A stretch of DNA of 19,405 bases from a virus: UHGV virus genome UHGV-0147800; one strand, 5' to 3'. The notes beneath the pieces were generated by a model, which worked only from the letters and a program-made list of their open reading frames with translations, had not been told where the DNA came from and made no database searches. This document shows, one piece after another, positions 4,407-7,091 of this stretch. The position numbers were made by a program, and so were the translations under genes. The stretch's first letter is position 1, and every line of letters begins with the position of its first letter.

Positions 4407-4438
4407 ATAAAAGAAATCCCCGCGAGTGCGAGGATTGT
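4407..4438 (-). terminator. Putative intrinsic terminator (first of the tandem pair)
   Basis: Minus strand reads AATCCTCGCACTCGCGGGGATT (about 9-bp stem with one mismatch) followed by TCTTTTATCT, and overlaps the stop of the 94-aa gene. Confidence 0.35.
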
Positions 4439-4722
4439 TATTCATTGCCGATATTCACCTTTATCGCGAATACCTTTACCGGTTTATCGCCGAAGTGCGG
4501 ATGTGTGATTGTCTTGATTTCATACCCTTCATACGGGACGTCTATTCTGCGACTGGAGTCGTCGCGCTTCGGATATCCCTTTGTGATAATCAGGCGGTCA
4601 TATTCCCGGAACATAATTCGCTTATTCCAGTAGTCATTACACAGGCGATACTCTTCCGTTTTCTCTCCGCGAATCATGGCATCGAAGTATTCACCTTTGA
4701 CGGCAAGTTGAAGGTTAGCCAC
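4438..4722 (-). CDS. Hypothetical protein (94 aa), possibly ASCH/PUA-like fold
   Basis: ORF with GTG start at 4720-4722 preceded by a strong SD (GCAGGAGGTTAACC-GTG). Overlaps the upstream DUF551-like gene by 8 nt. Fold assignment is a guess from the MANLQLAVKGEYFDAMIRGEKTEEYRL pattern. Confidence 0.65.
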   Translation of the reverse strand: MANLQLAVKGEYFDAMIRGEKTEEYRLCNDYWNKRIMFREYDRLIITKGYPKRDDSSRRIDVPYEGYEIKTITHPHFGDKPVKVFAIKVNIGNE

Positions 4723-5095
4723 GGTTAACCTCCTGCGGCGGTTCTGGTAGAGGCATCCAGTGGGTTACCTCCTTGAGATACAGGTCTTCGCCACCACCGT
4801 CATCCCAAGTGGGCTTGCCATCATTAAACCAGTCGCCATATACGCCGACCTGAGTGTTGGGGATGCTTGGTGGGTAGTTGTTTTTAAAGTCAGCAGCTAA
4901 CACATAGCATTGTCGCTCTCCCATTTCTGGCATTCGCTCACTACAGCTTATCCAACTATCCGGAGTTACCGGAGAGTTGCCAGCCTCATACGCCACACGC
5001 ATCCAGTGCATAAGCGTTTCAGTGCTCACACAGCCGCAATCAACATCAATTTTGCCGTGCTGCTGTTCCAGCCATTGCTCAAGCGTAGTGCTCAT
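4715..5095 (-). CDS. DUF551-like phage protein
   Basis: 126-aa ORF ending with the characteristic ...DLYLKEVTHWMPLPEPPQE tail seen in DUF551 phage proteins. Start overlaps the stop of the upstream gene (ATGA). Confidence 0.65.
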   Translation of the reverse strand: MSTTLEQWLEQQHGKIDVDCGCVSTETLMHWMRVAYEAGNSPVTPDSWISCSERMPEMGERQCYVLAADFKNNYPPSIPNTQVGVYGDWFNDGKPTWDDGGGEDLYLKEVTHWMPLPEPPQEVNRG

Positions 5096-5325
5096 TTTTC
5101 ATCCCCCCGATGATGCCATCTGCATCGCATCTCATAACACCCCCACTCAACACGAAAACCACATAGCCTGTGCAGATCCACCCACTTCTGCGCCATCGCT
5201 GGCGACGTGTAAATCACAGTGAATGCGTTATCTTCGTTGTCGATTTGCGTAAACGTCACTTTGTACAACAACCCACCGTCGACACATGCTGTGTTCAACG
5301 ATTTATTGCTAATACCCTCAATCAT
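5092..5325 (-). CDS. Hypothetical protein (77 aa)
   Basis: ORF translationally coupled to both neighbours by 4-nt overlaps. No recognisable motif. Confidence 0.55.
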   Translation of the reverse strand: MIEGISNKSLNTACVDGGLLYKVTFTQIDNEDNAFTVIYTSPAMAQKWVDLHRLCGFRVEWGCYEMRCRWHHRGDEK

Positions 5326-5903
5326 TCGTACTCAACCCCCGCTGTTTTGAATTTGATCCCCGCTGCCTGCAATGCGTGCTCGACGTCGAAGCGGTCCAGC
5401 CATCCACCAAAGTGGTGCGGCATCATTACCACCCGCTCACCGCTATTTATTGGGTGGCCCATACGGGGTTCGTAGCCGTCCGGTAACTCGACTTCCCGCG
5501 CTTCCAGTTCAGCAATACGCTTCTCTGCGGCCTCTGCCCTGCATTGTTCCCGTTGGAACATTTTGTGGGTGCGGTCGAGCGCCTCAAGTCTGGCTGCTGA
5601 TGTTTTCTGTTCTGCTTCAAGCTCAACGCGCAGCTTCCCTACCGTTAACGCAATCTCCTCGTTCTCCTGATCGCGGCTTTTGATGTATTGCAGGTTTCTT
5701 TCCCGTTCATCCAGCAGTGCCAGCACGGTTTCTGGTCCGGTCAGAAATTTGAAGGCGTTGAGCGCATCAATATCCACACCGTAATCTTTAAGTTCCTGTT
5801 CACTTAACAAGTCATCATCAGCTGGCAACATTAACAGGCGTTCCATTGCTGGAATTGCACGTTCCGCCACCTCACGCAGTGCCTGGTAATTAATTTCGCT
5901 CAC
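5322..5903 (-). CDS. Ead/Ea22-like family protein (coiled coil)
   Basis: 193-aa ORF whose N-terminus MSEINYQALREVAERA and central coiled coil resemble the recalled Ead/Ea22 family of lambdoid early-left regions. Position matches the lambda ea22 region. Confidence 0.55.
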   Translation of the reverse strand: MSEINYQALREVAERAIPAMERLLMLPADDDLLSEQELKDYGVDIDALNAFKFLTGPETVLALLDERERNLQYIKSRDQENEEIALTVGKLRVELEAEQKTSAARLEALDRTHKMFQREQCRAEAAEKRIAELEAREVELPDGYEPRMGHPINSGERVVMMPHHFGGWLDRFDVEHALQAAGIKFKTAGVEYE

Positions 5904-6144
5904 TGGCTGCCTCCTGCTTTTCTGCCTTCAACACCATGCGAGAACCATCATCCAGCTCCCACACTATCTCACCACCTTCAGCCATGACCAGTTGCCACAC
6001 CAATTGAGCAGCCTCATTGGTAACATCACGACCTGGATCATTGCCAACGCGCATACGTCCACCTTCAACATCGCGCATTTTTGCCAGCATGATAGTTTTT
6101 GATAGCGGTGAAAAACCAAGCTGTAGTCGTGCTGAATTACTCAC
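5890..6144 (-). CDS. Hypothetical protein (84 aa)
   Basis: ORF in the same overlapping gene chain. No recognisable motif. Confidence 0.5.
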   Translation of the reverse strand: MSNSARLQLGFSPLSKTIMLAKMRDVEGGRMRVGNDPGRDVTNEAAQLVWQLVMAEGGEIVWELDDGSRMVLKAEKQEAASERN

Positions 6145-6623
6145 TGGTTGCCTCCTTTGCGAAGCTGGTCGGCGAACAAACGTACACCAGACGCTTCACT
6201 GCGTAGAAACTTAACGGCATAATCAAAACCACCTCGTTCTGCGTCGTCTGCTCCGTTGTCGAGGTTATCTGCGTACATCTCTACCCCCTGCGCCCGTACT
6301 TCAGCCAGGAAAGCATCGGTGGCTGGGGTTTCAGTAACATCATCTTCCCATTCGCTAAACTCCTCACGACAAAAGTCATTAAATTCCTTCTCAGATTGCT
6401 TAAGCGAGGTATTTTCAGCAGCCATCTTCGCGCATTTAGCCTCAAGGTTATCAATCGTGATTCCAGCAGAACGACACTCCCGCAACGCCGTTTCTAGTTT
6501 TGATTCAAGTTCACCGAACTTACGCACAAGATATTCAGCGTTTGTTTCGTTAACCTTTAAATCTCGTGGGATGCATTTACCTTTCAGAAAACCATCCATC
6601 TCAATTAGTGACATTTGTTTCAT
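6141..6623 (-). CDS. Hypothetical protein (160 aa) with acidic C-terminal half
   Basis: ORF with ATG at 6621-6623, stop overlapping the next gene. Predicted coiled-coil N-terminal half. Confidence 0.6.
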
Positions 6624-6817
6624 TTCTTCCCACTCCGCAACATCGCATTCAGATATTTGTTGTCATTAACAGAACCGAAACTATTTCTCTTAAGCAATTC
6701 CTCTCTCGATGGCGTTGGCTTTACGCGTTGGCGAATAATCATTTCTGCCGGAAGAATGCCGGGATTGTATGCAAGTCCTCTCATGGTAAATTCCTCAGTC
6801 ATTACTGATAGCGCCAT
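6620..6817 (-). CDS. Hypothetical protein (65 aa)
   Basis: Short ORF in the gene chain, ATGA overlap with the downstream gene. Confidence 0.45.
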
Positions 6818-7091
6818 AGCGTGAGCGGTAATTACGCAGGCGCGGGTCGATATATTCAGGGAATTTGTCTATTGTCGCTTTTCGCAACGGTCTCATTGCT
6901 GTTTCGTTTGTTCGGTCCTTCTCCTGTTTTAGCGCGAGTTGTATATCGCGTCGGTACATCCGTTCTGCTTTTGTTTCTGGTGTCAGAGCAAGAAACGCGT
7001 CGAAATTGTTTTTGATATTCTCCAGCACCTCCGCCTTGGAGCTACCGGAGCAGTTGCGCGGGTCATCCGCACCATACAGAGGCGCTGGCAT
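6795..7091 (-). CDS. Hypothetical protein (98 aa)
   Basis: ORF immediately downstream of the SSB-like gene. No recognisable motif. Confidence 0.5.

Follow-up and report, generated by a model that had tools for sequence, protein, structure and literature searches.

An overlapping chain of small genes in a torS prophage

The window analyzed here is a stretch of 19,405 nucleotides (nt) of the UHGV virus genome UHGV-0147800, and its gene content identifies it as the probable left arm of a lambdoid prophage located next to torS in Escherichia coli, together with the immunity and replication region. Between positions 4438 and 7091 it carries eight tightly packed open reading frames (ORFs) on the minus strand, which a preliminary description had presented as a chain of small genes of unknown function in the early-left accessory region. 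Their coordinates and their lengths in amino acids (aa) were reproduced exactly in our list of minus-strand ORFs, and are as follows:

ORF1, 4438-4722, minus strand: 94 aa, gene for a putative ASCH-fold protein
ORF2, 4715-5095, minus strand: 126 aa, 5'-truncated EaA-type gene with DUF551
ORF3, 5092-5325, minus strand: 77 aa, phrog_17148
ORF4, 5322-5903, minus strand: 193 aa, Ead/Ea22-like gene
ORF5, 5890-6144, minus strand: 84 aa, DUF7446 gene
ORF6, 6141-6623, minus strand: 160 aa, gene of the HK620 hkaH/HK97 gp37 type
ORF7, 6620-6817 as the longest ORF (65 aa), corrected to 6620-6784 (54 aa), minus strand: DUF2737 gene
ORF8, 6795-7091, minus strand: 98 aa, abc2

Taken as longest ORFs, neighbors overlap by 8, 4, 4, 14, 4, 4, and 23 nt from ORF1 to ORF8. 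No position on the minus strand of the segment falls outside a complete ORF of 60 aa or more (100% coverage, compared with 26.8 ± 12.8% and a maximum of 68.5% in 1,000 dinucleotide-preserving shuffles), and a codon-usage log-likelihood score trained on confident genes from other parts of the window ranks the annotated frame best of the three sense frames in 8/8 ORFs. Because of this coverage and these codon scores, the eight-ORF chain is real and not a product of chance. On the plus strand, ORFs of 60 aa or more occupy 76% of the same region, and the true genes might in principle lie there (4426-4728, 5372-5683, and 6256-6669), with the minus-strand chain as their shadow. We give this reading practically no credence and rejected it on the Pfam and PHROG matches, all of which fall on minus-strand translations, and on the codon scores, which favor the minus-strand frames for most ORFs. 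Public annotations are also all on the minus strand, and both GC skew and flanking genes point leftward.

All eight ORFs match PHROG families (E ≤ 1e-33), and Abc2, DUF2737, and DUF7446 exceed the Pfam gathering thresholds besides DUF551 and Ead_Ea22; the earlier statement that only DUF551-like and Ea22-like features are recognizable was thus too narrow. The label of unknown function is only partly right: it falls for the 98-aa ORF8, identified below as Abc2, and the remaining ORFs belong to catalogued families. Near-identical public copies exist for every ORF (e.g., 99% for ORF6, 98% for ORF1, and 97% for ORF3). An NCBIfam scan returned no matches for the eight proteins or the flanking ones, and a PADLOC scan found no defense-system family at E ≤ 0.01 for any of ten proteins (chain plus flanks). 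PDB sequence searches with ORF1, ORF2, ORF4, ORF5, ORF6, and ORF7 returned nothing meaningful, no Rfam family was found inside the chain, and a repeat search gave short, chance-looking matches only.

To obtain median pairwise ratios of nonsynonymous to synonymous substitution rates (dN/dS), the window proteins were mapped by tblastn onto 95 related loci. In these loci no homologue carries an in-frame stop, except for 1 of 68 DUF2737 copies. Median dN/dS is 0.07 for ORF1, 0.46 for ORF2, 0.40 for ORF4, 0.39 for ORF6, 0.43 for DUF2737, and 0.40 for Abc2, as well as 0.40 for ORF5 from 3 pairs only; it is not computable for ORF3, whose matches are either identical copies or 50%-identical partial ones. 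With intact homologues and dN/dS below 1, most ORFs of the chain are real genes.

ORF8 encodes Abc2 and belongs to the recombination module

By sequence comparison, ORF8 is identifiable as Abc2, the P22-type anti-RecBCD protein 2. It matches Pfam PF11043 over profile positions 1 to 97 of 97 (E = 1.5e-35; 121.7 bits; cutoff, 25), phrog_656 (“abc2 anti-RecBCD”), and P22 Abc2 in PDB entries 8b1t and 8b1u over residues 1 to 98 (E = 3.7e-32; ~61% identity). The Abc2-RecBCD complex has been solved and points to RecBCD hijacking as the mechanism, with the N-terminal helices of P22 Abc2 binding RecC and Pro68 being the proline engaged by PpiB (PMC9836394). In the alignment to 8b1t, a stretch of 12 residues is identical, the N-terminal RecC-binding region is conserved, Pro68 is kept within an R-P-x-R-K-A-T motif, and the C-terminal RSRY motif is kept. 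The window protein is accordingly full length relative to P22 Abc2 and is predicted to bind RecC and to alter RecBCD activity. All 60 distinct homologous segments are free of in-frame stops.

At 61% identity to the Abc2 of P22 and HK620, the window protein represents a second allele, and it is accompanied by a Sak4/SSB recombinase module, whereas P22 Abc2 is accompanied by Erf, Abc1, and Arf. This second allele is common in IMG/VR prophage contigs, and here it occurs with Sak4 and SSB proteins 98 to 99% identical to those of HK620; a search of genome contigs with Abc2 yielded 6 loci only. The HK620 recombination module comprises hkaM-sak4-ssb-abc2 (PMC5928155). In the window, abc2 lies directly downstream of the Sak4 and SSB genes, in the same order as in HK620, and it is functionally part of the recombination module, not of the cargo.

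DUF2737 marks a conserved border, and its start is internal

ORF7 matches Pfam PF10930 over profile positions 1 to 53 of 53 (E = 2.1e-29; 101.6 bits; cutoff, 25) and is the equivalent of HK620 hkaI, to which it is 93% identical, and of HK97 gp38. Residue 12 of the 65-aa ORF is where both the Pfam and the PHROG profiles start, and public annotations of the gene (RefSeq and HK620) give 54 to 55 aa. An internal ATG at 6784 is preceded by a GAGGA Shine-Dalgarno site, 20 of 43 distinct homologous contexts lack any in-frame start upstream, and the 10-nt gap from the abc2 stop to the DUF2737 start is exactly conserved in 63 of 70 loci. The true start thus appears to be the ATG at 6784 rather than 6817, giving a protein of 54 aa. 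The preliminary description had listed overlaps of 4 to 23 nt; the smaller ones stand, and the 23-nt overlap between abc2 and the DUF2737 gene is evidently an artifact of choosing the longest ORF, in place of a real 10-nt gap.

In loci anchored on DUF2737, an ORF6-type gene follows immediately downstream in 78 of 80, and Abc2 lies upstream in 70, the other 10 having a RecT-type module instead. A strict co-dependence of Abc2 and DUF2737 was rejected on these 10 loci. Together with the first ~40 codons of the hkaH-type gene, DUF2737 forms a block of ~290 nt (6500-6790) that is kept alike behind Abc2/Sak4, Abc2/Erf, and RecT-type modules. One could read DUF2737 and the invariant hkaH N-module as a functional unit, namely, an unrecognized phage recombination or nuclease-evasion accessory factor and not a mere recombination linker, with the ASCH protein as an RNA-directed host-takeover or counter-defense factor; we regard this combined proposal as unlikely.

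ORF3 and ORF2 as parts of one rearranged EaA-type gene

ORF2 contains a full DUF551 domain at residues 47 to 121 (Pfam PF04448; E = 4e-20; 72.9 bits; cutoff, 22; profile positions 1 to 68 of 68). Its first 45 residues, a “QWL...AYEAGNS” module, are internal in EaA-type proteins of 203 to 367 aa, its new ATG lies in an ATGA overlap, and RefSeq treats the equivalent as a pseudogene, “missing N-terminus.” The core of ORF3 (residues 19 to 65) is ~50% identical to an internal module of EaA/DUF551 proteins of 170 to 180 aa. This core module and the DUF551 domain share a single ORF in 7 related loci, but are split in the window, where no single intact ORF with N-terminal modules and DUF551 is present. 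Since the modules are shared with intact EaA proteins, the ORF2 equivalent is called a pseudogene, and the tail of ORF3 varies in frame, ORF3 and ORF2 are the parts of one modular EaA-type gene rebuilt by recombination into two coupled ORFs. The count of eight genes is in this respect too high.

ORF3, a module detached from the N-terminal/middle part of such a gene and ending in an unconstrained tail, is doubtful as a functional gene. Its family comprises 5 clusters among 5.8 billion proteins, and its DNA occurs in 31 of 5,426 complete E. coli genomes, where it lies in a VR50-type prophage at mlrA. Across homologues, the last 15 to 20 codons are read in different frames; in the window, the codon score of this tail is below zero in frame 0 and above zero in frame +1, a weak signal from 17 codons only. 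RefSeq calls the ORF in some genomes only. Lack of conservation or of frame preservation across homologous regions had been named beforehand as what would speak against the chain. ORF1, ORF2, and ORF4 to ORF8 hold up on dN/dS and intact frames; for ORF2 a dN/dS of 0.46 is set against its 5' truncation and pseudogene call, and ORF3 does not hold up, given its tiny family, its frame-variable tail, and its inconsistent RefSeq calls.

These features also bear on the idea that the chain consists in large part of the decaying DNA of a defective prophage, with small ORFs that are open by chance. The 5'-truncated ORF2 with its pseudogene call, the detached module of ORF3 with no measurable constraint, and the truncated pseudogenes of Ea22 and Lar that related loci carry in this slot would all agree with decay. 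However, for the other six ORFs intact full-length homologues are numerous, dN/dS is 0.07 to 0.43, and Shine-Dalgarno sites are strong. Outside the chain, the window appears to encode a complete early region, and the 100% ORF coverage was never reached in the 1,000 shuffles. We therefore hold decay as an account of the whole chain to be very unlikely.

Cassettes between DUF2737 and xis

Downstream of DUF2737, ORF6 is a helical modular protein of the HK620 hkaH/HK97 gp37 type that starts in an ATGA overlap with the DUF2737 gene (phrog_614, E = 2.5e-61; 97% identical to HK620 hkaH). Its family has a fixed N-module, a hypervariable middle of 0 to ~100 aa, and a fixed C-module, and it comprises >7,584 protein clusters, a few of them with PF13935. 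An AlphaFold model of ORF6, with a predicted local distance difference test (pLDDT) score of 47, was unusable. The next gene, ORF5, matches DUF7446 (Pfam PF24233; E = 6.4e-19; 68 bits; cutoff, 24.1; profile positions 2 to 70 of 70) and phrog_1578. DUF7446 is a rare cassette, found in 2 of 86 loci anchored on Abc2 and in 21 phage records; its 14-nt overlap with the following EaD gene occurs also in Salmonella phage 29485.

ORF4 matches Pfam PF13935 at residues 2 to 134, over profile positions 1 to 139 of 139 (E = 9.5e-29; 101.2 bits; cutoff, 27). Its parts differ in phylogenetic distribution, with breakpoints at 5600-5620 and 5720: the DNA of the N-terminal part is shared with 15 loci, that of the center with 29 to 38, and that of the C-terminal part with 2 to 4. 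Ea22 C-terminal domains (CTDs) are known to differ among variants, and the lambda Ea22 CTD has been solved by nuclear magnetic resonance (PMC10834534). In ORF4, neither this CTD nor any other PDB chain was matched at E ≤ 1, apart from spurious matches to IWS1. Ea22 itself has been described as pro-lysogenic and tetrameric (PMC7093339, PMC10834534).

ORF1, the last gene of the chain, matches phrog_625 (E = 1.9e-51) and bears the NCBI family name “ASCH domain-containing protein,” the family comprising >670 protein clusters named ASCH. The match to Pfam ASCH (PF04266) is subthreshold and limited to residues 6 to 28 (14.2 bits; cutoff, 21.2; E = 0.071). An AlphaFold2 model built from 32 homologues reached a pLDDT of 82.5, and in a Foldseek search of the PDB with this model, ranks 1 to 15 were all ASCH structures (3iuw, 1xne, ZmASCH 5gus/5guq, 2z0t, and YqfB 9kyh), with probabilities of 0.75 to 0.96, template modeling scores of 0.5 to 0.6, and E-values of only 0.06 to 0.5. 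The model thus modestly supports an ASCH/PUA-like beta-barrel fold, and the product is a putative RNA-binding or RNA-modifying protein. Within the chain, ORF1 is the gene under the strongest constraint.

Swapped cassettes within a conserved frame

Related loci number ~175 in all, and nucleotide sharing was counted at ≥88% identity over 95 of them. Within the 86 Abc2-anchored loci, DUF2737 always comes next after Abc2, the ASCH gene is present in ~27 (87 to 98% identity) and ORF6 in ~55 (30 to 98% identity), the Ea22 and DUF551 genes are mostly partial matches, and ORF3 has no full-length match. At the DNA level, abc2 and DUF2737 are shared with ~80 of the 95 loci, ORF1 with ~24, and ORF5 and ORF3 with 2 each; the N-terminal 40 codons of ORF6 are shared with 40 to 56 loci and the rest of that gene with 4 to 17, while sharing of ORF2 ranges from 2 to 34 by module. 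Alignment ends cluster at gene and domain borders, with breakpoints piling up at 4180, 4440, 4720-60, 4920-80, 5600-20, 5720, 6520, 6640, 6780, and 7100. The intergenic block at 4350-4450 is found in 40 to 42 of the 95 loci, more than either flanking gene, and looks like a conserved recombination linker or regulatory element.

A sister prophage in E. coli O7:K1 strain CE10 (NC_017646.1, 1085795-1105199) occupies the same torS site and matches window positions 1 to 4200 (torS, int, xis, and the start of a 55-aa gene next to xis) with 100% identity. It has the ASCH gene at the same coordinates, and keeps the block DUF2737-abc2-ssb-sak4-kil-cIII-Nmad5. Between ASCH and DUF2737, in contrast, it carries a dATP/dGTP pyrophosphohydrolase-domain protein, a 251-aa hypothetical protein, a truncated Ea22 gene, and a 69-aa ORF, and it differs in its immunity region and the cassette at the rexAB position. 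On account of its different middle, CE10 was rejected as the origin of the window. The two torS prophages, with identical flanks and different middles, are a natural and clear-cut case of cassettes being exchanged while the borders stay fixed.

Comparative genomics of related prophages, proposed beforehand as a way to separate conserved from swapped cassettes, accordingly delineates a conserved Abc2-DUF2737 border, beyond which cassettes are freely swapped up to xis. A presence/absence table over 89 loci, the mosaic map, and the CE10 prophage agree with the earlier placement of the chain in a nonessential, rapidly exchanged early-left accessory region, and the comparisons show the segment between DUF2737 and xis as apparently dispensable cargo reassorted by recombination at gene and domain boundaries. 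No phage record and none of the 5,426 complete E. coli genomes holds more than 63% of positions 4100 to 7400 in one place; the exact cassette combination is absent from the collections searched, as is expected for mosaics.

In the slot occupied here by the DUF551 gene, related prophages carry other genes. In CE10, the pyrophosphohydrolase-domain protein lies in the DUF551 position (4715-5239), and another related locus has a remnant of a Lar-family restriction-alleviation gene in the same slot (2757-2858 of that locus). Because a pyrophosphohydrolase domain or a Lar remnant is found in this slot, genes with plausible anti-restriction roles do cycle through the DUF551 position.

Translational coupling and read-through from pL

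The chain is flanked by the following features:

torS, 50-2794, leftward
Lambda-type integrase gene (int), 2889-3962, leftward
Excisionase gene (xis), 3940-4158, leftward
Terminator-like hairpin after the 55-aa gene, 4189-4208, minus strand
55-aa gene, 4198-4365, minus strand: a ninth same-strand small gene, between the chain and xis (phrog_676, E = 1.4e-39; RefSeq coding sequence; dN/dS, 0.22)
Second leftward terminator-like hairpin in the block between ASCH and the 55-aa gene, 4404-4385, minus strand
Terminator-like hairpin directly 3' of the ASCH stop, 4415-4436, minus strand: 9-bp stem followed by a T-run
HK620-type SSB gene, 7115-7702, minus strand: 98 to 99% identical to the HK620 protein
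Sak4 recombinase gene, 7699-8379, minus strand: 98 to 99% identical to the HK620 protein
cIII thermoregulator RNA, 8774-8832, minus strand: Rfam RF01804, 88.5 bits
N, 9726-10070, leftward
cI-like repressor gene, 11605-12252, leftward

The HK620 counterparts of the SSB and Sak4 genes are hkaK and hkaL, and matches to phrog_743 and Pfam AAA_24 support the pair. Upstream of Sak4, the leftward order continues with an hkaM-like gene, kil, cIII, Nmad5, N, a two-gene cassette, and the cI-like repressor gene; cro, cII, an O-like gene, and a primase/helicase gene run rightward. The gene order of the window is that of lambda, with the chain between the recombination genes and xis.

A strict consensus scan found no leftward sigma-70-like promoter site in 3900-10600; the whole scanned region holds 1 such site, on the plus strand, compared with 9.1 ± 3.0 expected. 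Inside 4438-7091 there is also no leftward terminator-like hairpin, such hairpins occurring only after ORF1 and after the 55-aa gene, and at the position equivalent to the tL3 terminator annotated inside HK620 hkaI the window has no recognizable hairpin. The possibility that the chain consists of lysogen-expressed morons with their own promoters was rejected, there being no leftward promoter-like site. ORF2, ORF3, and ORF6 start in ATGA stop/start overlaps, and Shine-Dalgarno sites (AGGAGG, AAGGAGG, or GAGGA) lie 7 to 8 nt before the starts at 4722, 5903, 6144, and 6784. The GTG starts of ORF1, ORF4, and ORF5 each have AGGAGG (ORF1 and ORF4) or AAGGAGG (ORF5). Strong Shine-Dalgarno sites were counted at five junctions, these three GTG starts among them. 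Because no internal leftward promoter-like or terminator-like site is found, read-through from pL is suggested, and the data fit translationally coupled genes in the promoter-distal part of an N-antiterminated pL operon. The tight overlaps had earlier been taken as an argument for co-expressed genes; this is plausible and agrees with the stop/start overlaps, whose upstream genes harbor Shine-Dalgarno sites, and with the lack of internal promoter-like or terminator-like signals, as far as sequence can tell.

We consider the segment, with a probability of roughly 85%, to be the promoter-distal pL operon of a lambda/HK620-type prophage beside torS and the counterpart of the lambda exo-xis and P22 “ea” regions. 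On induction or infection, N-antiterminated pL transcripts would traverse N, Nmad5, cIII, kil, hkaM, sak4, and ssb, enter abc2, and continue to xis and int, and the genes would be translated as a coupled string via ATGA and other short overlaps of stop and start codons, the Shine-Dalgarno sites lying within the preceding gene. Abc2 would bind the RecC subunit and redirect RecBCD for Sak4/SSB-mediated recombination. DUF2737 and the hkaH-type N-module form the conserved border, followed by the DUF7446 gene, the Ead/Ea22-like gene, the broken EaA/DUF551 gene, and the ASCH-fold protein. The Ea22-like and hkaH-type proteins may be oligomeric coiled-coil or helical scaffolds presenting swappable C-terminal domains, as for Ea22 (PMC10834534), and the cargo would fine-tune the lysis-lysogeny decision and host physiology, by analogy with the exo-xis genes of lambda and Phi24B (PMC3824215, PMC7093339).

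Several points weigh against this interpretation. The strict consensus scan missed the pL promoter itself, the terminator-like hairpins at 4436-4385 would end any transcript lacking antitermination, and we infer the co-transcription of the chain from pL from its sequence. ORF3 and ORF2 may be nonfunctional remnants, and 6 of the 8 products have no experimentally known function. Tuning of the lysis-lysogeny decision and host physiology is the most likely role of the cargo by analogy, but it is extrapolated from lambda and Phi24B, to whose exo-xis genes only the Ea22-like ORF is homologous, and ORF4 lacks the lambda Ea22 CTD.

Known systems and a possible role in counter-defense

The closest systems are the hka region of HK620 (hkaD-hkaJ: Eag, DUF551/EaA, Ead/Ea22, hkaH, hkaI, and abc2) and the P22 “ea” region. 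As there, a recombination module, abc2, DUF2737, an hkaH-type gene, an Ea22-like gene, and a DUF551 gene are followed by xis and int. The likeness to HK620 extends to SSB, Sak4, and hkaH (97 to 99% identity), to hkaI, and to the tight stop/start overlaps. The window differs from HK620 in its Abc2 allele, its added DUF7446 and ASCH genes, another Ea22 C-terminal part, and a split EaA gene, and it has lambda-type int/xis at torS, whereas HK620 has an IntS/TorI-type module.

With the exo-xis region of lambda and Stx phages (orf60a, orf63, orf61, orf73, ea22, and ea8.5), the chain shares the position in the pL operon, a nonessential and mosaic character, and an Ead/Ea22-family protein with an architecture of N-terminal part, coiled coil, and swappable C-terminal part. 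Work on exo-xis and Ea22 has also described DUF551 as a portable domain (PMC10834534, PMC7093339, PMC3824215). Unlike exo-xis, the window has no homologues of orf60a, orf63, orf61, orf73, or ea8.5 detectable with Pfam or PHROG, the Ea22 family alone being common to both; the C-terminal part of ORF4 is unrelated to the solved lambda Ea22 CTD, and Sak4/SSB/Abc2 take the place of Exo/Bet/Gam.

A region of this type, mosaic and with overlapping genes, belongs to the textbook picture of lambdoid phages. Comparative accounts of the HK97/HK022 and HK620 genomes are said to have been given by Juhala et al. in 2000 and Clark et al. in 2001. The finding is a classic lambdoid ea/exo-xis accessory region, already known, and its value lies mainly in annotation, with three corrections (the identity of Abc2, the overlap artifact, and the split EaA gene).

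The preliminary description had added that cargo at this site often acts on host physiology or defense; such action is demonstrated for no ORF of the chain. Even so, the variable cassettes (ASCH, DUF7446, Ea22-like, and/or DUF2737) could form a counter-defense island directed against the immunity of the host or of competing prophages, a reading that we entertain only tentatively. The chain adjoins abc2, a known counter-defense gene, and turns over rapidly. Lar-like restriction-alleviation genes and a fusion of dATP/dGTP pyrophosphohydrolase with DUF551 occur in the same slot of related prophages, and the ASCH gene is under strong purifying selection. Published work covers the logic of such accessory regions and screens that included the abc1/abc2 region (bioRxiv 10.1101/2023.04.06.535777). 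However, no ORF is homologous to a characterized anti-defense protein, the PADLOC and NCBIfam scans gave no matches, and Ea22 proteins, the sole relatives studied by experiment, affect the lysogeny decision, not defense (PMC7093339). A counter-defense role for some cassettes is plausible on the published logic, and it overlaps with the reading of the segment as a promoter-distal pL operon without excluding the latter. If DUF2737, DUF7446, ASCH, or hkaH-type proteins were counter-defense or recombination factors, very large families (>670 and >7,500 clusters) would gain a function; the evidence points to no specific role of this kind for any of the four.

Other genes of the early region

In the leftward block upstream of Sak4, the 79-aa ORF at 8573-8812 is an over-extended kil, as Pfam Kil matches only residues 44 to 74 and the RefSeq kil has 114 nt. 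A gene for a nucleotide modification associated domain 5 (Nmad5) protein lies between N and cIII/kil (9041-9724, minus strand) and recurs in the CE10 prophage. Directly downstream of the cI-like repressor gene, at the position of lambda rexAB, two overlapping minus-strand genes encode proteins of 162 aa (11120-11608, phrog_5893) and 206 aa (10503-11123, phrog_5820), followed by a strong terminator hairpin at 10496-10475. Neither has a Pfam or PADLOC match, and the pair is a candidate for a lysogen-expressed exclusion or defense cassette. The same slot of the CE10 prophage carries another pair, a DUF6932 protein and a protein of 309 aa.

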